Below are positions 8,081 through 26,312 of a stretch of 64,000 nucleotides of DNA, one piece after another. The number at the start of each line of letters is the position of its first letter. Position 1 is the first letter of the stretch. A program made the translations under genes and the position numbers. A model generated the notes under the pieces. The model was given only the letters and a program-made list of their open reading frames with translations. It was not told the DNA's origin and did no database searches. The DNA comes from a virus (lineage: Duplodnaviria > Heunggongvirae > Uroviricota > Caudoviricetes), in IMG/VR virus record IMGVR_UViG_3300022660_000062, positions 1 through 64,000 of that record. The stretch is one strand, 5' to 3'.

Positions 8081-8113
8081 GCTAACTGTAGAAATATAGT
8101 TAGCTTTTTTTAG

Positions 8114-8142
8114 TTGATTATTTAACTGTTATCATATATAAT
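8114..8142 (+). promoter_or_regulatory. Sigma-A-type promoter (family consensus)
   Basis: TAGTTGATTATTTAACTGTTATCATATATAAT; TTGATT-17-TATAAT. Confidence 0.6.
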
Positions 8143-8179
8143 GTTAGTATAATAAATAACAGTTAAGGAAGTGCATCTT

Positions 8180-8527
8180 ATGTTTAAGTTCCATACTTAT
8201 GTTCCCGCTTCTCAGATTTGGCCTACTGCTGAAAATCATGTTGACAAGGGAATGGCCCTTGGCTTAGTAAGAGGCTATTGTGTTGAGGTTAAGCTCAGTG
8301 ACGGTAGCACTGATTGGTGGTCTTGTGAGTGGATTCAAAGCGAGCCCGAAACTGAATTCAATGATGATTTTCATATTTGGTTGTGGAAGGAAAACTGTGT
8401 TGAACTCACCGGTAGAATCTGCTTCAGAGGTTATGGTTTTGAAGAATATGACTTTGAAGAGCGTGAACATGTAGTTCGGCCCATCGATGACGCCGAAGCA
8501 CTTAAAATCATTCAGAGTGTTGCTTGA
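8180..8527 (+). CDS. Hypothetical protein
   Basis: ORF; RBS TAAGGAAG, ATG at 8180. Confidence 0.55.
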   Translation: MFKFHTYVPASQIWPTAENHVDKGMALGLVRGYCVEVKLSDGSTDWWSCEWIQSEPETEFNDDFHIWLWKENCVELTGRICFRGYGFEEYDFEEREHVVRPIDDAEALKIIQSVA

Positions 8528-12052: not shown

Positions 12053-12130
12053 TCCTTCAATGGTGCAGTTGGTAGACACCGCCTTGCTATGGAAAGGCGT
12101 TGCGTTGGTTCGAGTCCAACTTGATGGACC
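12053..12130 (+). tRNA. Atypical tRNA-like gene with 8-nt anticodon loop (GCTATGGA) and one acceptor mismatch
   Basis: Acceptor CCTTCAA/TTGATGG (one T-T mismatch), D-loop AGTTGGTAGA, anticodon stem GCCTT/AAGGC around an 8-nt loop, T-arm GTTGG-TTCGAGT-CCAAC, discriminator A, CCA encoded. Confidence 0.4.
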
Positions 12131-12237
12131 AGAATGTCGTAGATCTGAATCTAGGCGGGGTGGCGAAGTGCCCAAAATCCTCGTGAGGGCAATTGCAGGG
12201 GAGCTGCTTCTAGGGCTGAAGGCTCCTTACGACATCT
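12131..12237 (+). other. Structured element closed by a long inverted repeat (ATGTCGTAG...CTACGACAT)
   Basis: A 9-bp inverted repeat at 12134-12142 and 12227-12235 encloses about 85 nt of GC-rich sequence with internal hairpins (GGAGC...GCTCC, GGCGGGG...). No credible ORF. Confidence 0.3.
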
Positions 12238-12664
12238 AAATATGATGAGAGCTGGTTACTCTGCTGAGCGGTGAAACGATATATCTGCAGGCGGTGCGTG
12301 CACCTACACGACATCATATTTAGCGTTAACCGAACTCTTTACGTGAAGTTGAGTGACTCATACACAGGTAGCATTTACATTAAATCTGCTTCTATAAAGT
12401 TATGTTCAAGAGTTGTTAAGAGGATCTGTATGAGAGATCCGTCGGGTTGCAGCGTTTATTTAACAACAAATGAGCAGCATCATAGGCCACTGGCTTGTTA
12501 CACGACCTCAAGGCGAACAGATAAGATGGATGACGGTGTGGCAACGCAGACCAACTTACGGCTCTGTAACAAACTTGTATAATTGTTACATCTATAGATA
12601 GTGTCTAGGCGTTGAGTAGAGGAAATGTAACAAGTTAGTGGTACTAGTTGTTTTCTTAAGATCT

Positions 12665-12751
12665 GCGGGATTGCATGGAATGGTAGACAGGGCAGACTCA
12701 AAATCTGTTGCTCATAAGAGCGTGAGGGTTCGAGTCCCTCATCCCGCACCA
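12665..12751 (+). tRNA. tRNA-Leu (anticodon CAA)
   Basis: Acceptor GCGGGAT/ATCCCGC, Leu-type D-loop GGAATGGTAGAC, anticodon loop CTCAAAA, variable-arm hairpin GCTCATAAGAGC, T-arm GAGGG-TTCGAGT-CCCTC, discriminator A, CCA encoded. Confidence 0.8.
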
Positions 12752-12763
12752 TACAAAAGATAG

Positions 12764-12792
12764 TTGATTTAACTGTTATCATAAATTATAAT
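12764..12792 (+). promoter_or_regulatory. Sigma-A-type promoter (family consensus)
   Basis: TAGTTGATTTAACTGTTATCATAAATTATAAT; TTGATT-17-TATAAT. Confidence 0.55.
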
Positions 12793-13316: not shown

Positions 13317-13453
13317 GGCCCAATGGTGGAATTGGTAGACACAAGGGACTTGTTGGATGCCAGTGCTAATCGAGTAGGGGCAGCACCTACATCCGACACC
13401 AAAAATCCCTCGCTGGAGACAGCGTACCGGTTCGAGTCCGGTTTGGGCCACCA
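13317..13453 (+). tRNA. tRNA-Leu-like gene (inferred anticodon TAA) carrying a ~50-nt insertion in the anticodon loop
   Basis: Acceptor GGCCCAA/TTGGGCC is a perfect match, with Leu-type D-arm GTGGAATTGGTAGACAC and variable-arm hairpin CGCTGGAGACAGCG. T-arm is ACCGG-TTCGAGT-CCGGT, discriminator A, CCA encoded. Anticodon stem halves AGGGA (13344-13348) and TCCCT (13406-13410) are separated by 57 nt. Removing 13352-13401 restores a CTTAAAA loop. Confidence 0.5.
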
Positions 13454-15731: not shown

Positions 15732-15826
15732 GGCGGGATACCGAAGCGGTCATAACGGCACGGTCTTGAAAACCGTTGTGTCGGCTCTGATCCGACCCGG
15801 GGGTTCGAGTCCCTCTCCCGCCGCCA
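15732..15826 (+). tRNA. tRNA-Ser (anticodon TGA)
   Basis: Acceptor GGCGGGA/TCCCGCC, discriminator G, anticodon stem ACGGT/ACCGT with loop CTTGAAA, about 21-nt variable arm, T-arm GGGGG-TTCGAGT-CCCTC, CCA encoded. Confidence 0.85.
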
Positions 15827-19689: not shown

Positions 19690-19784
19690 GCTCCCGTAGC
19701 TCAATTGGTAGAGCGGCGGATTTATACTCCGTTTAGCACCAGATTAGTGCAAGGTTCTCGGTTCGAGTCCGAGTGGGAGTACCA
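19690..19784 (+). tRNA. tRNA with anticodon TAT (AUA-decoding, Ile-like) carrying a ~19-nt hairpin insertion between anticodon stem and variable loop
   Basis: Type-I body: acceptor GCTCCCG/TGGGAGT (GU pairs at both ends), D-arm GCTCAATTGGTAGAGC, anticodon stem GCGGA/TCCGT with loop TTTATAC. An extra TTAGCACCAGATTAGTGCA sits before AGGTT. T-arm CTCGG-TTCGAGT-CCGAG, CCA encoded. Confidence 0.5.
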
Positions 19785-21541: not shown

Positions 21542-21800
21542 TAAATCAGATGCTATTTGGTAGTAAAAGTACGATGCCGAAAGGTAAGAAAATAGCTATG
21601 TCCATTTCTTGCGACCTTTTAATGGTGAAGATATAGTGGTCTTCACGAATGGATGTCCTGCTTGGAGAATCGGGAGTGCAGGAGTAGCATCATAAGACCA
21701 CATCGGGAAGTATCCTCACGCTATATCACAAGACGGTATGGGATGACTTAATAGAAAGTAGAGGCTAGTGGTGTCTTTGTGTTTCGCTTCCCGCTCATTT

Positions 21801-21836
21801 GCCGGTATAGCTCAGTTGGTAGAGCAGCTGATTTGA
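21801..21836 (+). pseudogene. tRNA 5' fragment (acceptor, D-arm, 5' anticodon stem) truncated at insertion point of homing-endonuclease gene
   Basis: GCCGGTA-TA-GCTCAGTTGGTAGAGC-A-GCTGATTTG runs directly into ATTGTATATAAATATGC (junction-like motif) and then the ORF at 21881. No matching 3' half (TACCGGC) is found downstream. Confidence 0.6.
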
Positions 21837-21880
21837 TTATTGTATATAAATATGCATAAGTAATAATGGAGCATATTTAT

Positions 21881-22564
21881 ATGAGCGAAGAAACTAAGTT
21901 TCAGTGTGAATACTGTAATAAAATATGCAAAAATGCTAATAGTTTAGCACAGCATCAGATAAGATGTTCTTCAAATCCAAATAGAATTCACTCTTCCTTT
22001 GTTGCTGGTTTTAATACAAAAGGAAGACAAGCTTGGAATACTGGGCGTACAAAAGAAACAGATGAGCGTGTGGCAAAACAAGCGGAACAACAACGCAAGT
22101 TTTATGAAACACATCCTGGAACATTTACAGGAAAGACTCATACTGAAACATATAAGTTAATGATGAGTGAACTTGCTCATGAACGAGGCCTTGGTGGGTT
22201 CAATATGAGAAGCAAGGGCATTCATTATCATGGATCAAAATTAGATTCAACTTATGAGCTAGCTGTTGCTCAGTCTCTTGATGAAAACAGTATTGTTTGG
22301 GAGAGACCAAAATCATTTACATATGTTGGATTTGATAACAAACAACATAGATATGTCCCTGATTTCTATCTTCCAGATTATGACATTTATCTTGATCCGA
22401 AAAATGATTTTCTAATCAACAATGTTAATCCTGGTCTTGGTTACAATGACTGTGACAAGATTAAACTTGTTGAACATCAGTTGGGAATTAGAGTCTTAAT
22501 TCTTGATTCAGAGCATCTTACATGGGACAAGATAAAATCTAAGATTGATGCCGAAGTCCCATAG
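21881..22564 (+). CDS. Homing-endonuclease-like protein (C2HC zinc finger + NUMOD3-like + PD-(D/E)XK-like domain)
   Basis: Motifs CEYCNKICKNANSLAQHQIRC, FTGKTHTETYKLMMSELAHERGLGG, and STYELAVAQSL...YVPDFYLPDYDIYLDPKNDF. GGAG RBS before the ATG at 21881. The 3' end (stop at 22562-22564) overlaps the first 15 nt of the tRNA at 22550. Confidence 0.7.
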   Translation: MSEETKFQCEYCNKICKNANSLAQHQIRCSSNPNRIHSSFVAGFNTKGRQAWNTGRTKETDERVAKQAEQQRKFYETHPGTFTGKTHTETYKLMMSELAHERGLGGFNMRSKGIHYHGSKLDSTYELAVAQSLDENSIVWERPKSFTYVGFDNKQHRYVPDFYLPDYDIYLDPKNDFLINNVNPGLGYNDCDKIKLVEHQLGIRVLILDSEHLTWDKIKSKIDAEVP

Positions 22565-22635
22565 CGGCCGATTGGACCGGATTTGTAACCCGGTGGCTCC
22601 TGCCCGCGTCGGTTCGAATCCGACCTTCGGCTCCA
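22550..22635 (+). tRNA. tRNA-like gene with long variable region; anticodon loop TTTGTAA (TGT?), identity uncertain
   Basis: Perfect acceptor GCCGAAG/CTTCGGC, 3-bp D-stem CCA/TGG, anticodon stem CCGGA/CCCGG with a terminal A-C mismatch, 14-nt variable region, T-arm GTCGG-TTCGAAT-CCGAC, discriminator T, CCA encoded. Confidence 0.5.
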
Positions 22636-22648
22636 TAAAAATTGAATC

Positions 22649-22676
22649 TTGACAAGTGCATAGTAAAATATATAAT
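22649..22676 (+). promoter_or_regulatory. Strong consensus sigma-A promoter (TTGACA-16-TATAAT) driving a noncoding region
   Basis: CTTGACAAGTGCATAGTAAAATATATAATC. Confidence 0.6.
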
Positions 22677-22677
22677 C

Positions 22678-23430
22678 ATTGACAACTCAGTGCAGAACGA
22701 ATACCATCGTGCTGAGAACTCGATCCTGCCTGCGGGCGCCTGGAATGCGAAAAACATTCACGAACGATAGCTTGTGATAGCTAGAGGGTTTATGGAGTGA
22801 TTCATAGATTCCGCCTCTGAACTGAGGTCCAGGATGGAAGGGTGTGCTGACATAGTTGTAATCAAAGATACCGTCTTATCGCTCCCACAATAGACAGCTT
22901 GGTTAACAGCCGAGCCGAATCCAAGTTAGGTATTAGCTGGTGACTGTTACAAACCTTGGAAAGACCAACAAGGAAGTTTGCGTTGATCCCTCAGCAATGA
23001 GGAGTATAAGATAAGGTCGGAGGTGCGAGTAGCTCAAACGCAGTCGACTTAAGATGAAAAAATGCTATAAAGAGCTTGTAGATAGTAATAGAAAGTTACT
23101 AATATCAAATTTCTGAATGGCGAGTGAAAGTTGCAAGTAATCAGTCTTGTACAGGAATTATAATGGAGAACGGTGAGTGAGCCTTAAGGTCAAGCCGATG
23201 GCTCCTCAAGGAAGTTGGAAGGCTTCTGGGGCAAGAAGTTTATAGTGGACGCATTGTAAGCTCAGACTTGTCTCCCTGTTGATCGAATATGGTTGAAGGC
23301 TAAACAGTTGGTAAGGCGAAGGCCTGTTGATGAACTTATATATTTTACTATGTGCTTGTCGTGCGTTTTCATTCCTCCTTTCGTGATAACGAGCTTGTCG
23401 ATTATTCGGCGAGCTCGTTATTTGTTTGTT
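22678..23430 (+). ncRNA. About 750-nt promoter-to-terminator transcript with no credible ORF (unclassified structured RNA)
   Basis: It lies between the consensus promoter at 22649-22676 and the terminator at 23388-23430. GC is locally elevated with many short hairpins (CCTCTGAACTGAGG, GGCGCC, AGTCGACT). Only spurious short or antisense ORFs are present. Confidence 0.35.
23388..23430 (+). terminator. Rho-independent terminator
   Basis: AACGAGCTTGTCGATTATTCGGCGAGCTCGTT followed by ATTTGTTTGTTT. Confidence 0.55.
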
Positions 23431-23500
23431 TATTTCTACAATAACTGTTTGTTTATAGTTGATAGTTTCTTAGATCTACTATATAATAAGAATGTAAAAT

Positions 23501-23791
23501 ATGATATGGAGGCGTATTCATATGGATGAAATCAAATATGCAAAGTGTTCTTTTAACAAGGCAACAGGTCAAATTGAAGATTCTGATCTGGAATGGCTGG
23601 AAGGAACAGAGGAGTCCGCTTGTAAGTCTGTTCGAGATGACAGCACTACTTGTGTCCTATTTTTCCCCAAAGATGTTCCTGGTAAGGGTCATCCGGTTAT
23701 TCCAGAGGTGTCCAGAGCTATGTTTGAAGTAGATCCTGCTATCTATGGTGTCTGTTACTACAAGGGGTGGAGTGGCTATGTGTTTGAGTGA
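23501..23791 (+). CDS. Hypothetical protein
   Basis: ORF with GGAGG RBS. Confidence 0.5.
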   Translation: MIWRRIHMDEIKYAKCSFNKATGQIEDSDLEWLEGTEESACKSVRDDSTTCVLFFPKDVPGKGHPVIPEVSRAMFEVDPAIYGVCYYKGWSGYVFE

Positions 23792-24020
23792 TGAGAATGT
23801 TAATCTTCGTCATATCTTCAAGATTGAAATTTACAACAGCATTGGTCCTTTTGAACAGGACGAGGTAATTCTTTACAATGCGGATAAGATTGATGAAGAA
23901 ACTGCCCTTCAAGTTGTAAGTGCAGGAGCACATAGTAAGTATGTGCTGCACATGAGTAAGCGACATTTTGAAGCTCTATTTTTGAACAAGGAGTGTGACG
24001 ACAGATGTCTTTTGGTATGA
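23745..24020 (+). CDS. Hypothetical protein
   Basis: ORF with AGGGGTGGAG RBS; overlaps the upstream gene by 47 nt. Confidence 0.4.
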   Translation: MVSVTTRGGVAMCLSDENVNLRHIFKIEIYNSIGPFEQDEVILYNADKIDEETALQVVSAGAHSKYVLHMSKRHFEALFLNKECDDRCLLV

Positions 24021-24442
24021 TACAGTACAAGAGTCCTTTTAGACCTGTTCCTCGTGATCGTAATCATGTTTGCGGATTTTGTGGAACGCGTGTTGATGTC
24101 AAGTACTCTTACGATGTTGACTCGTCCGATAAATATCCTGAAGCGTCAAGGGAGACTGAAACATCTATCTACAGTTGCAGTTCATGCACTCTTAGACGGA
24201 TGTTTACTTTTCCAAACCATCAATTTGAATATGATTTCAATATTGCAGATCCGTACAAGTTCATGTCTACTCTTCAGCGCATGTACAAAGATCTAGAAAC
24301 TCAGAAAACTTTGTTTCACAAAACTTGGGTATACTGTTACGGCTGTAAAGCTTATGTTAGAGTTGAAGACTCTATTGTGACAAAAGATGAAGATCAGGAT
24401 GTACTGAAATGCGCTACATGTGATTCTATCTTGAGGGATTGA
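24005..24442 (+). CDS. Hypothetical zinc-ribbon protein
   Basis: ORF; CGFCG...CSSC...CYGC...CATC motifs. Confidence 0.5.
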   Translation: MSFGMIQYKSPFRPVPRDRNHVCGFCGTRVDVKYSYDVDSSDKYPEASRETETSIYSCSSCTLRRMFTFPNHQFEYDFNIADPYKFMSTLQRMYKDLETQKTLFHKTWVYCYGCKAYVRVEDSIVTKDEDQDVLKCATCDSILRD

Positions 24443-24812: not shown

Positions 24813-26312
24813 ATGTTAACTTATCTTATCCCCGCAGCGGTAGTCGTTGCCTTGCTGATTCTGTTGTTTATTACAGGTTATGTCAAGTCACCCCCTGATA
24901 CCGCTTATCTTATCAGTGGTGTTCGGAAGAAAACTGTCATTGGTAAGGCTGCTCTGAAGATTCCCTTCTTTGAGCGAATTGACAAGCTGACTCTAAAGTT
25001 GATTCCTATTGATGTGAAGACTTCAAGCACAGTTCCTACTGCAGATTACATTGACATCAGTGTTGATGCAATCGTAAACGTCAAGATTTCAAGTAAGCCT
25101 GAACTGCTTGCTCTGGCTGCTGAAAACTTCCTAAATCAGCCGATGGATTACATTGCTCGTGTTGCTAGAGAAGTGCTGGAAGGCAACATGCGTGAAATTG
25201 TTGGTCAGATGAAGTTGGAAGAGATGGTTACTGACCGTCAGCTGTTCTCAGAAAAGGTTAAGCAGAATGCTGCTCCCGATCTGGCTGCAATGGGTCTTGA
25301 AATCGTTGCATTCAATGTTCAGAATTTCGACGATCGCAACGGCGTAATTGAGAATCTGGGTGTTGACAATGTTGAGCAGATTCGTAAAAAGGCTGCTATC
25401 GCAAAGGCTGATGCTCACAAGGAAATTGCAATTGCCGAAGCAAATGCAAGTAAGGATGCAAATGATGCTCAGGTAGCATCCGATCTGGAGATTGCTCGTA
25501 AGCGGAATGAGCTTGCTTTGGAGCAGGCTGAACTTCAGAAGAAGGCTGACATCAAGTGGGCAGAAACCGAAGCTGCAAAGGGCATTCAGGCTGAGGAACA
25601 GCGTAAGATTCTTGAGATTTCTACTGCAAATGCAAATCTGGCTAAGCAGGAGAAGGAGATTGAGCTGAAAGCTCGTGAGGTTGAGATTACTGAGCGTAGA
25701 CTGGAAGCAGAAGTCAAGAAGACTGCTGATGCAAAGAAGTACGCAGCTCAGCAGGAAGCAGATGCTAAGTTGTATGCCACTCAGAAGCAAGCTGATGCAG
25801 ATCTCTTTAAGCGTCAGCGTGAAGCAGAAGCTGAGAAGTTCGAAGCAGAACAGAAGGCTGAAGCAACAAAGGCTGCATCTGATGCTCAGAAGGTTGCTAT
25901 GGAAAATGAGGCAGCAGGTATTGCAGCAAAAGGTCGTGCTGAAGCTGAAGCAATTCGAGCAAAAGCCGAAGCCGAAGCAGCTGGTATTCTGAAGAAGGCA
26001 GAAGCAATGGAACGCTATGGTGAAGCTGCAAAGATGGACATGCAGCTCCAGGCTCTCAAGGTTTACTTTGAGCAGCTTCCTGCAATGGCTCAGGCAATCG
26101 GTGAAGGCTATCAGGGTGTTGACAAGATTGTCATGATGGGATCTGATTCCAATCAGCTGGCAAACAACATCATGAATACTACCACTCAGTTGAGTGAGGG
26201 TATGGCAGCAAGCCTCGGAATTGATCTGAAGACTCTGCTGGCTGGTGTGCTGGGACACACTATCGGTAGTAAGTCAAGCTGCGACTGCGGCGGCAACTGC
26301 CACGAAAAGTAA
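24813..26312 (+). CDS. Flotillin-like protein (SPFH/band-7 domain + EA-rich coiled coil; FloT/YuaG family)
   Basis: N-terminal TM helix and SPFH domain (...YLISGVRKKTVIGKAALKIPFFERIDKLTLKLIPIDV...VDAIVNVKI...), then a long Ala/Glu/Lys-rich coiled coil. The minus-strand ORF 25248-26258 is an antisense artefact. Confidence 0.8.
   Translation: MLTYLIPAAVVVALLILLFITGYVKSPPDTAYLISGVRKKTVIGKAALKIPFFERIDKLTLKLIPIDVKTSSTVPTADYIDISVDAIVNVKISSKPELLALAAENFLNQPMDYIARVAREVLEGNMREIVGQMKLEEMVTDRQLFSEKVKQNAAPDLAAMGLEIVAFNVQNFDDRNGVIENLGVDNVEQIRKKAAIAKADAHKEIAIAEANASKDANDAQVASDLEIARKRNELALEQAELQKKADIKWAETEAAKGIQAEEQRKILEISTANANLAKQEKEIELKAREVEITERRLEAEVKKTADAKKYAAQQEADAKLYATQKQADADLFKRQREAEAEKFEAEQKAEATKAASDAQKVAMENEAAGIAAKGRAEAEAIRAKAEAEAAGILKKAEAMERYGEAAKMDMQLQALKVYFEQLPAMAQAIGEGYQGVDKIVMMGSDSNQLANNIMNTTTQLSEGMAASLGIDLKTLLAGVLGHTIGSKSSCDCGGNCHEK

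Follow-up and report, generated by a model that had tools for sequence, protein, structure and literature searches.

The ROOL RNA family (RF03087) was reported by Weinberg et al. (2017, PMC5737381), and its members belong to the small number of natural RNAs for which protein-free cages exceeding the ribosome in size are known. The env-120 ROOL forms an octamer according to cryo-EM (Kretsch et al. 2025, PMC12286853), and structures of the Efa octamer and the Lsa hexamer have been summarised as well (PMC12990946). The lncRNA of the L. salivarius megaplasmid is also a ROOL. It yields a mature RNA of 520 nt, with ends determined by circular RACE, and its promoter was mapped 225–450 nt upstream; this ROOL is therefore processed from a longer transcript (Cousin et al. 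2017, PMC5643018).

We analysed a window of 64,000 nt (64 kb) of viral DNA, in which a first-pass annotation had singled out positions 22640–23430 as a noncoding transcription unit. It had listed a large structured RNA, a degenerate intron or ribozyme remnant and a decoy or antisense regulator as candidates, and suggested an Rfam scan and a comparison with relatives. The scan spoke for the first candidate: RF03087 matched positions 22662–23344 of the + strand with 281.9 bits (gathering threshold 99.1, E=1.5e-63), and the match covered model positions 1–574 of 574, that is, it runs end to end and is not truncated. Judged by its sequence, region 22650–23361 encodes a phage ROOL RNA, a member of a family already described and structurally solved. 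This RNA measures 683 nt by the model match and about 710 nt (22650–23361) with the full closing helix P1. It is longer than the family mean (581 nt), and the excess consists of a 60-nt peripheral insertion and the 35-bp P1. The main features of the locus are:

22550 to 22635, + strand: tRNA of 86 nt whose variable arm is long, called as tRNA-Thr (UGU) (ARAGORN; Rfam tRNA, 47.5 bits)
22649 to 22676, + strand: promoter TTGACA-16-TATAAT of the sigma-70/sigma-A type (12/12 match; −35 at 22649–22654, −10 at 22671–22676)
22650 to 22684, + strand: P1 5' strand (inverted repeat, MFE fold, pair table)
22662 to 23344, + strand: ROOL RNA (RF03087 match, RNAalifold covariation)
23325 to 23361, + strand: P1 3' strand (inverted repeat, MFE fold, pair table)
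23385 to 23432, + strand: intrinsic terminator (17-bp stem and 4-nt loop at 23385–23422, then a T-rich tail), which ends the tRNA/ROOL unit
23459 to 23487, + strand: next promoter, TTGATA-17-TATAAT (11/12), with which a separate unit begins; it serves the protein genes that follow

Conservation of the structure was observed directly in an alignment of our own, independent of the Rfam model and comprising 18 ROOLs with the window's RNA counted in n=18. Using MAFFT and RNAalifold, compensatory changes were found at 83 of the 100 predicted pairs. The long-range helices covaried in this alignment, the window's copy included, and hairpin changes between the window and its close relative L138 were compensated. 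In addition, the conserved ROOL blocks were all found in the window (ACAAUAGAC, UAUAAGA, UUCUGAAUG..GUGAAAGUU, GCUCAGACUU and GGCGAAGGCC). The blocks CACAAUAGAC, GUAUAAGAUAAGG, UUCUGAAUGG..GUGAAAGUU, GCUCAGACUUGUCUCC and GGCGAAGGCC align to the upper-case Rfam consensus and were invariant in our own alignments.

A large, highly structured RNA that adjoins tRNAs and a homing-endonuclease-like ORF might also represent a degenerate intron of group I or II, a ribozyme of some other kind or an RNA of the GOLLD or OLE type, and in the relative L012 a GOLLD is located a few kb from the ROOL. However, ROOL was the sole Rfam family to match 22640–23430 even at E≤0.5, and it matched end to end. Group I and II introns, known self-cleaving ribozymes, GOLLD, OLE and 6S RNA gave no match in this region, either at gathering thresholds or at E≤0.5. 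We consider such an origin extremely improbable, which applies to the proposed intron or ribozyme remnant as well. Nothing points to a role as decoy or antisense regulator.

The absence of any ORF above noise was confirmed. The longest + strand ORFs inside the region comprise 42 and 32 aa, with TTG starts, and a 78-aa ORF (23293–23529) runs through the terminator. If the locus were a decayed protein gene or encoded small peptides, the 42-aa ORF (22642–22770) would be a candidate next to the 78-aa ORF, since L138 holds a 40-aa ORF at the equivalent place. But 7/7 substitutions between the 42-aa and the 40-aa ORF, read from the translations, are nonsynonymous and are accompanied by a 6-nt indel, and the 42-aa ORF has its start ahead of the promoter and within the helix. 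Furthermore, indels among the relatives are mostly not multiples of three, and substitutions track base-pair covariation. The relatives carry the same RNA at this locus and no intact protein gene (0 of roughly 50), which leaves frameshift decay, the objection named in the first-pass annotation, without footing. A coding origin has next to no probability in our view.

Contacts B1, B4 and B6 between subunits have been mapped in the env-120 cryo-EM octamer, with residues listed in Supplementary Table 2 of Kretsch et al. (2025, PMC12286853). Our copy of the env-120 sequence has 650 nt, not 659, and contact residues were therefore located by local motif and not by number. Within the window's RNA, we found the following elements:

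22686 to 22716, + strand: P2 hairpin (Rfam alignment); its loop CCA at 22704–22706 is the L2 side of contact B1
22938 to 22966, + strand: both sides of kissing interaction B4, the loop UGGUGA (GGU at 22939–22941) and the downstream ACC (22964–22966)
23040 to 23110, + strand: variable A-rich linker, unaligned and insertion-rich in the Rfam alignment and our own, unconserved among relatives
23118 to 23120, + strand: UGG, which closes the conserved UUCUGAAUG block on its 3' side and takes in the next base; it pairs with the L2 loop in B1
23164 to 23223, + strand: extended peripheral stem, formed by an insertion of 60 nt that is absent from the family consensus (insert [60] of the Rfam alignment; own alignments)
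23247 to 23253, + strand: hairpin loop GGACGCA, positionally equivalent to the symmetric kissing loop B6 (L18), with self-complementary CG/GC dinucleotides

For B1, the CCA of the L2 loop pairs with the UGG in the window, and homologues display CCA/UGG, UCA/UGA and GCA/UGC, i.e. covariation. B4 covaries across homologues as well, and here the window differs from L138 by a double change: the pairs are GGU/ACC in the window, GGAG/UUCC in L138, and GGCA/UGCC or GACA/UGUC in others. In the window, B4 comprises three Watson-Crick pairs followed by a G-G mismatch at the fourth position. At B6, the window has a GACGC variant, whereas UCGCU is common in the ROOL family. The 60-nt insertion is present in L122 and L012, partly in L138, and absent from L025 and L035.

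The short palindromes and the raised GC content that had drawn attention to the region are real. GC amounts to 0.47–0.50 across 22550–23000 versus about 0.33–0.40 in the flanks. The palindrome CCTCTGAACTGAGG is a ROOL hairpin, which occurs in the compensated form CCCTCGAACGAGGG in L138; GGCGCC lies within a local stem conserved in the clade; and AGTCGACT falls into the variable linker, with the palindrome lost in L138 (AGTTGACT). We rejected GGCGCC and AGTCGACT as protein sites, the former being part of a stem and the latter unconserved.

The first-pass annotation had counted the promoter, as a near-consensus match, among the best in the window. With both strands scanned, it is the sole 12/12 site in 64 kb, and any 12/12 site appears in just 9% of block-shuffled windows. 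Sites of at least 11/12 number seven, all on the gene strand. We estimate that a 12/12 match would fall by chance at exactly the P1 spot with a probability on the order of 1e-4 at most. Direct inspection of the coordinates placed the whole promoter site within the P1 5' strand. Applying the rule of −10 plus 7 nt, and not mapped ends, the predicted start is at about 22682–22685, which is the P1/P2 junction at the inner end of P1 (+22 from the Rfam start). This lies 33–35 nt inside the RNA, downstream of the 5' terminus of the functional molecule. Since the hexamers are within the P1 5' strand, a transcript started there would lack that strand. Thus, the proposed unit bounded by promoter and terminator holds at one end only: the terminator, with its stem retained in L122, where two G·U pairs become Watson-Crick, ends the unit, but the promoter is located inside P1 and does not bound the RNA.

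P1 itself comprises 35 bp with a ΔG of −41.7 kcal/mol, versus −12.6±2.8 kcal/mol with a shuffled partner, and its five G·U pairs are functional in + strand RNA alone. The Rfam model includes the inner 16 bp as its P1, and the inner pairs show AU, UA, GC and CG types, and hence covariation, in the 18-ROOL alignment. A 2-nt bulge in the 3' strand (A23334, C23335) faces the end of the −10 hexamer, and according to the pair table the imperfections of P1 are found at the TT of the −35 and beside the last base of the −10. Because of where these imperfections fall, the minus-strand mirror of the promoter is crippled (ACGACA-16-TATAAG) and the + copy is perfect. The mirror, crippled at key positions, was dropped as a candidate promoter. 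RNA 22683–23432, the promoter-initiated form, folds at −225 kcal/mol (z −2.3), and with the 5' strand −253.5 kcal/mol (z −5.3) is reached. Much of the stability signal therefore comes from P1; at a length of 750 nt, MFE folding is too unreliable to predict the behaviour of a free 3' arm.

Across 33 ROOLs, the median length of P1 was 27 bp (range 4–47), with extents obtained by walking outward from the innermost pair and stopping at loops >3 nt; RNAduplex with 70-nt flanks over-extended the helix. Among about 50 ROOL loci checked, only the window and L138 have a strong promoter inside P1. The 11 other ROOLs with a promoter of at least 10/12 have their predicted start ≤2 nt from, or 5–16 nt upstream of, the outer end of P1.

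As is typical of the family, this ROOL resides in a phage tRNA island, of which it forms the 3' end. The island comprises 21–23 tRNA genes upstream, on the same strand as the ROOL (ARAGORN/Rfam), and its last tRNA (22550–22635) ends 14 nt before the first P1 pair. Between this tRNA and P1 we found no terminator-like site, and the tRNA is a likely source of read-through transcripts. The other ROOL loci that we located were in viral contigs throughout (33/33), most of them among tRNAs, and a dedicated promoter is missing from most tRNA-embedded ROOLs. The ROOLs of L075 and L002 have tRNAs on both sides without a spacer, and the ROOL of L010 contains a tRNA; in these cases, co-transcription and processing are therefore unavoidable.

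A conserved pseudoknotted element was observed just upstream of many ROOLs. In relatives without a dedicated promoter, it may be the signal for processing. The Rfam E-value scan revealed no family for this element, nor for a 143-nt block at 21549–21691 of the window, and an exact-word scan of viral contigs for the latter returned nothing.

The gene content of the window is phage-like, and the large subunit of a topoisomerase II is 44% identical to the versions of Bacillus and Listeria phages. The source is a large phage, whose hosts are probably Bacillota. A blastn search with the ROOL region in distant mode against 50,697 phage records gave no match, and megablast, run with 25 kb from the window, yielded nothing beyond a tRNA-sized match of 56 nt among phage records; the phage is without a close sequenced relative within this collection of 50,697 records. 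In viral contigs, we found no relatives of the neighbouring 145-aa protein (24005–24442) and no copy of the exact 28-nt promoter/P1 word, and a subclade-specific 20-mer detected one distant ROOL. Among genome contigs, the same 20-mer had two matches (a Bacteroidota MAG and a Saprospiraceae MAG), neither of which was a ROOL by nhmmer, and no host was indicated.

The pattern of conservation was read directly from the comparison with L138. The promoter and P1 5' arm are identical at 40/41 positions and the P1 3' arm at 35/35, versus 66–81% identity in the interior and 35% in the upstream flank; the P1 3' strand is also identical to that of L122 (36/36). Both hexamers and the 16-nt spacer are unchanged in L138. 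The identity of the P1 arms between the window and L138, the single informative relative for the 5' arm, exceeds what promoter function or pairing alone would need.

One might follow the first-pass annotation and regard the locus as an independent unit, with all or most of the RNA arising from the 12/12 promoter. The functional ROOL would then begin at the P1/P2 junction and be missing the 5' strand of P1, and the 3' strand of P1 would be left as a tail, either free or trimmed. This would fit a perfect promoter that has no equal in the window, lies on the gene strand and is 100% kept in L138 despite an unrelated upstream flank. It would also fit the homology between the window and L138, which begins 3–4 nt upstream of the −35 as if at the start of a module, and the strong terminator, a feature that sets this ROOL apart from tRNA-embedded ones. 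However, P1 belongs to the family consensus and covaries, both in the Rfam model and our own alignment and in Supplementary Table 3 of Kretsch et al. (PMC12286853). The fully kept 3' arm and the + strand-only G·U pairs would be purposeless if the 5' strand were never transcribed. Moreover, the 11 other promoter-bearing ROOLs are predicted to start near or upstream of the outer end of P1, and a same-strand tRNA lies directly upstream with no terminator in between. We regard an independent unit as rather unlikely.

The opposite reading takes the promoter match as non-working, either as a by-product of an AT-rich helix or as a site silent during infection, with the ROOL arising by read-through of the tRNA operon and processing alone. 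ROOL P1 5' strands are generally AT-rich and often contain TATAAT-like words, and the lack of an own promoter in most tRNA-embedded ROOLs agrees with this reading as well. It conflicts with the rarity of 12/12 matches in shuffled windows and at a particular spot, with the restriction of strong promoters inside P1 to the window and L138, where the site is perfectly conserved, and with imperfections that cripple the mirror and leave the + copy intact. A non-working match seems unlikely to us; the promoter embedded in P1 is probably active.

Taken together, we consider the following account very probable: this ROOL RNA ends a tRNA island, would be made by read-through and P1 processing and would form a cage as its homologues do, and the promoter inside P1 is probably active. 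As the promoter sits inside the P1 5' strand, RNA containing P1 would have to come from tRNA-operon read-through, i.e. from transcription entering from upstream through the adjoining tRNA and nowhere else. The ROOL would be cut from this precursor with the 35-bp P1 as processing stem, for which RNase III is plausible, and the strong terminator at 23385–23422 would close the unit. The embedded promoter would add transcripts with a start at the P1/P2 junction; these would be missing the 5' strand, and their P1 3' strand would be left as a free tail. An embedded promoter acting as the main source would leave the conserved P1 unformed, which is hard to reconcile with the perfectly conserved 3' arm.

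By homology, the ROOL monomer should be flat and multi-junction and self-assemble without protein into a closed homo-oligomeric cage. For the window's ROOL, this extrapolates from homologues at roughly 50–60% sequence similarity. The region equivalent to the linker is disordered in the env-120 structure and points into the cage (PMC12286853), and the variable linker of the window's RNA would likewise face the cage interior.

There is a bolder reading, to which we give little credence: the embedded promoter could be functional and selected together with its complementary 3' strand, and two forms of the ROOL would result. With read-through, P1 would be closed over 35 bp; a transcript initiated by the promoter would start exactly at the P1/P2 junction and have a single-stranded 3' tail of 35 nt. 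This is suggested because the promoter and both arms are perfectly conserved in L138, versus a diverged interior, and because the helix imperfections leave only the + strand copy as a promoter. If true, the choice of start site would be a structural switch in a cage-forming RNA and could affect processing, stability or assembly. A cage could display up to eight tails, and these could pair with the 5' strand of the precursor or, at the promoter of the RNA itself, with the non-template strand.

The window's copy adds little to the definition of the ROOL family, and it illustrates that such an RNA can be picked from raw sequence unaided. It also provides a compact test case for biogenesis, with a conserved perfect promoter in the closing helix, a tRNA just upstream and a strong terminator downstream. 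This case bears on the excision of ROOLs from tRNA-operon transcripts, on P1 as a processing stem and on the existence of a form without the 5' strand.

How does the locus compare with known systems? GOLLD (RF02032) resembles ROOL as a large ornate phage RNA found in tRNA islands and forming RNA-only cages, and its linker can hold a tRNA. It differs from ROOL in that sequence and fold are unrelated, and the window contains no GOLLD match. Other stable RNAs, such as rRNA and those of the phage T4 tRNA cluster, are processed from polycistronic precursors, and a long terminal helix that flanks a structured RNA beside tRNAs is the classical layout of a substrate for excision by RNase III and RNase P. 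The arrangement of P1 and tRNA in the window resembles this layout, as an analogy for mechanism only. The L. salivarius ROOL is plasmid-borne in a bacterium and not part of the tRNA island of a lytic phage, and a promoter inside P1 is not reported for it. Prophage-type ROOLs with a dedicated promoter (L008, L020, L045, L047, L061 and similar; 570 nt) share with the window a sigma-70-type promoter near the RNA. Their P1 comprises 26–28 bp, and their predicted start is no more than about 2 nt away from the first P1 pair. The whole helix is therefore transcribed in these loci, in contrast to the window, whose predicted start falls at the last P1 pair. With the ROOL family in general, the window's RNA shares covarying long-range helices, a variable linker, B1/B4/B6 complementarity and a same-strand phage tRNA island. 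Unlike a typical ROOL, it has a strong terminator of its own and a perfect sigma-70-type promoter inside the P1 5' strand. This promoter inside its own closing helix is the unusual point of the window's ROOL and a locally odd arrangement for its biogenesis.

The whole window was scanned with Rfam at the gathering threshold and again at E<=0.5. The interval 22662-23344 (+) scored 281.9 bits (E 1.5e-63; threshold 99.1) with the ROOL RNA model (RF03087), untruncated over model positions 1-574. No other Rfam family was found in the region, even at E<=0.5. Thus, the large structured noncoding RNA that the first-pass annotation had put forward, together with an Rfam search, is borne out by a full-length match, while none of the models for another of its candidates, an intron or ribozyme remnant, matched at E<=0.5. 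GOLLD, OLE and 6S were likewise rejected for want of a model match in the region. A 2017 study described ROOL (Rumen-Originating, Ornate, Large) as an RNA of roughly 580 nt with six multistem junctions and pseudoknots, found in prophages and beside tRNAs (PMC5737381). In Lactobacillus salivarius it equals 16S rRNA in abundance and is non-essential (PMC5643018; PMC12286853).

For comparison, ROOL loci were gathered from viral and metagenome contigs by conserved-block patterns, and 33 were confirmed by a full-length Rfam match. An alignment of 18 ROOLs including that of the window (MAFFT and RNAalifold) predicted 100 pairs, 83 of which showed at least one compensatory double change. These changes, the covariation that the first-pass annotation had proposed to look for among relatives, reach the inner part of the closing helix P1 and all long-range helices. 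We consider it very likely that the locus encodes a ROOL RNA and is expressed from the + strand. As far as sequence can test, every defining feature of this known, curated and structurally solved family was found, and with Rfam the identification is routine.

The locus has the following features:
22649-22676 (+), promoter TTGACA-16-TATAAT, 12/12 consensus match
22650-22684 with 23325-23361 (+), P1, 35 bp with 5 G.U pairs and a 2-nt bulge at 23334-23335
23385-23432 (+), terminator hairpin, 17-bp stem and T-rich tail

No + strand ORF longer than 42 aa lies between promoter and terminator, and GC is 0.47-0.50 over 22550-23000 versus about 0.33-0.40 in the surroundings; promoter, terminator, missing ORF and raised GC are thus all present as first annotated. 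The 42-aa ORF (22642-22770) has a 40-aa counterpart in the close relative L138, and all 7 substitutions between them are nonsynonymous (7/7, both translations read by eye). It starts 5' of the promoter, within the helix, and indels among relatives are mostly non-multiples of three. On these three grounds we rejected a coding reading of the region.

P1 has a predicted dG of -41.7 kcal/mol versus -12.6+-2.8 with a shuffled 3' arm. The P1 of the Rfam model corresponds to its inner 16 bp, and covariation was seen both in the 18-ROOL alignment and in the published ROOL R-scape table. Among the 33 ROOLs, P1 length ranges from 4 to 47 bp (median 27 bp), so that the 35-bp helix is long, but not exceptional. 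The position of the promoter is one point of departure from the family norm. Both hexamers lie within the P1 5' strand, and with the customary offset of about 7 nt from the -10, the predicted start falls at 22682-22685, on the last pair of P1 and the conserved AAC that joins it to the next hairpin, P2. As a control, we analysed eight prophage-type ROOLs with a conserved TTGAAA/TTGATT/TTGAAT-17-TATAAT promoter (one copy with a 16-nt spacer); their predicted start is at most 2 nt from the first P1 pair. At three further loci (L021, L046, L062) it precedes P1 by 5-16 nt. Of about 50 ROOL loci checked for promoter position, only L138, beyond the window itself, has a promoter of at least 10/12 set to start at the P1/P2 junction.

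The 12/12 site occurs once in the window (both strands scanned), and only 9% of block-shuffled windows held any such site. All sites of at least 11/12 (7/7) are on the strand that bears every gene, most of them just 5' of ORFs according to the ORF table. Since P1 is imperfect at the TT of the -35 and next to the final base of the -10, the minus-strand mirror reads ACGACA-16-TATAAG and is not a promoter. Its perfect match, its uniqueness, its conservation and its place on the gene strand make it probable that the embedded promoter is real.

Only two close relatives were found, the metagenome contigs L138 (JAEIGA010581666.1) and L122 (JAEIGA011350792.1). L138 is syntenic with the window, with homologues of two small upstream proteins followed by tRNA-Met, an intact tRNA-Thr, a 150-nt spacer and ROOL. 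Its identity to the window is distributed as follows:
85 nt upstream of the promoter, 30/85
promoter plus P1 5' arm, 40/41
P2, 32/33
interior in three parts, 139/176, 154/189 and 127/191
P1 3' arm, 35/35

Homology starts 3-4 nt before the -35 hexamer. At an interior identity near 75%, we estimate the chance of 75/76 matches over both arms at ~1e-8, and in ROOLs P1 usually varies more in sequence than any other part. On this comparison, both the promoter-bearing strand and its partner strand are under extra constraint here. L122 covers the 3' half of the locus and keeps the terminator stem, with two G.U pairs changed to Watson-Crick pairs.

ROOL is the final RNA gene of a tRNA island of 21-23 genes on the + strand (window 396 to 22635), and all ORFs of substance in the window are on the same strand. 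No close relative of the phage was found among 50,697 phage records; its topoisomerase II large subunit shares 41-45% identity with those of large Bacillus, Listeria and Streptococcus phages. The locus is flanked by:
21866-22564, endonuclease-like ORF (phrog_15137, E 7.6e-11), directly upstream
22550-22635 (+), 86-nt tRNA with UGU anticodon and unusually long variable arm, overlapped by the 3' end of that ORF
24813-26312, SPFH/Band 7 (flotillin-like) protein, 499 aa (Pfam PF01145, E 3.7e-23)

Past the terminator, an 11/12 promoter at 23459 precedes a block of small genes. The flotillin-like gene, an unusual phage cargo, belongs to the following transcription unit, 1.4 kb past ROOL. Upstream, only the 5' half of a tRNA-Thr(UGU) is left at 21803-21837; it breaks off within the anticodon and is in register with the intact tRNA-Thr of L138 (855-930). 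A homing-endonuclease cassette seems to have displaced the 3' half and supplied a replacement tRNA; its right-hand breakpoint is 3-4 nt 5' of the ROOL promoter. Between tRNA-Met and the broken tRNA-Thr, a noncoding block of ~143 nt (21549-21691) shares about 88% identity with L138:697-839, more than its surroundings. Its predicted fold is a closed multi-hairpin structure with five compensatory pair changes (window and L138 only). Rfam gave no match, and an exact 20-mer from the block was absent from viral contigs. The block is possibly a small structured RNA of phage tRNA islands that has yet to be described. The island also holds a weak Y RNA-like match (YrlA, RF02553, 18039-18157; 30.5 bits versus gathering 69, E 0.014), a 134-nt tRNA match (13317-13450) whose length suggests an intervening sequence, a tRNA call without assigned anticodon (12054-12131), and two 95-nt tRNAs, tRNA-Ser(UGA) at 15732-15826 (as tRNA-Sec 44.5 bits, just below the threshold of 47) and tRNA-Ile(UAU) at 19690-19784.

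Because selection on the helix needs both strands in one RNA, part of the transcription must come in from upstream. On the + strand, the 3' end of the nearest upstream tRNA is 14 nt from P1, and no terminator lies in the gap. At two other loci, L075 and L002, tRNAs abut ROOL on both sides with no spacer; in L075 (ROOL 2554-3250) these are tRNA-Glu and tRNA-Asn with overlapping boundaries. A third, L010 (1600-2195), has a tRNA-Phe gene (1954-2027) inside, as reported for some GOLLDs. Since tRNAs abut or lie within them, these three ROOLs must be cut from polycistronic precursors. In L. salivarius, the promoter is 225-450 nt upstream of the mature 5' end (PMC5643018). Given these three lines of evidence, P1-containing RNA would arise by read-through of the tRNA operon and subsequent excision. 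The long P1 would then be the likely processing stem, and by analogy with rRNA we infer RNase III as the cutter. Initiation at the embedded promoter would yield additional RNAs that begin at the P1/P2 junction and lack the P1 5' strand; these may be functional, regulatory or waste. The terminator would end both kinds of transcript alike. The division among these routes is much less certain than the identity as ROOL.

Most members of the wider clade carry a conserved element of ~65 nt immediately 5' of a shorter P1 (among them L009, L012, L025, L035, L083, L120, L125, L127, L128, L131, L133, L137, L139, L141 and L143). Examples are:
L025:3770-3836
L009 (- strand), ~6480-6545
L132:~130-200
L128:~420-486
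L143:~570-640

It comprises two interleaved covarying stems around AACCCUCC-GCUGAAUAAGC-CUGG and CGAUUUCGACUAA, in the order A5' < B5' < A3' < B3', a pseudoknot topology. Compensatory changes affect 9/12 alifold pairs of stem A; for stem B, covariation was judged by eye. Rfam gave no match for the element at E<=0.5; from its position it may define the ROOL 5' end, as a candidate processing signal or small ribozyme. It is absent from the window and L138, which carry the promoter-bearing long P1 in its place.

Other ROOL-bearing contigs held further oddities. L012 (IMGVR_UViG_3300022753_000048, 122.5 kb) has ROOL (7558-8229) and GOLLD (12269-12780) about 4 kb apart in one tRNA array; Rfam found no GOLLD in the window. 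In L067 (1796-3521), about 1.7 kb separate the ROOL 5' and 3' anchors, a distance suggestive of a large insertion. Matches to the 3' part of the OLE model (positions about 436-595) just exceed the threshold (52.9-53.5 bits versus 50) in tRNA arrays of three phage contigs:
L009:187-276 (-)
L025:10084-10167
L071:507-590 (-)

By length and position, these are more likely tRNA-like or partial elements than true OLE.

ROOL assembles without protein into closed cages, as revealed by cryo-EM in 2025, with octamers for env-120 and E. faecalis, a hexamer for L. salivarius and a disordered linker pointing into the cavity (PMC12286853; PMC12990946). We compared the inter-subunit contact residues of env-120 (Supplementary Table 2, PMC12286853). 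For B1, CCA 22704-22706 pairs with UGG 23118-23120 (L2 loop with the bases after CUGAAU), and the collected ROOLs vary between CCA/UGG, UCA/UGA and GCA/UGC. For B4, GGU 22939-22941 faces ACC 22964-22966; L138 has GGAG with UUCC, the third pair being doubly changed, and other relatives GGCA/UGCC or GACA/UGUC. The symmetric B6 kissing loop retains a self-complementary CG/GC (loop 23247-23253). With complementarity kept at all three contacts, the window ROOL therefore has what the cage requires, at least at the level of sequence. The promoter within the helix is a minor but genuine oddity, through which ROOL maturation could become testable. Compared with a typical ROOL, the window copy is longer, through a 60-nt peripheral insertion and the long P1, has its own strong terminator and a variant B6 loop, and carries a promoter inside P1.
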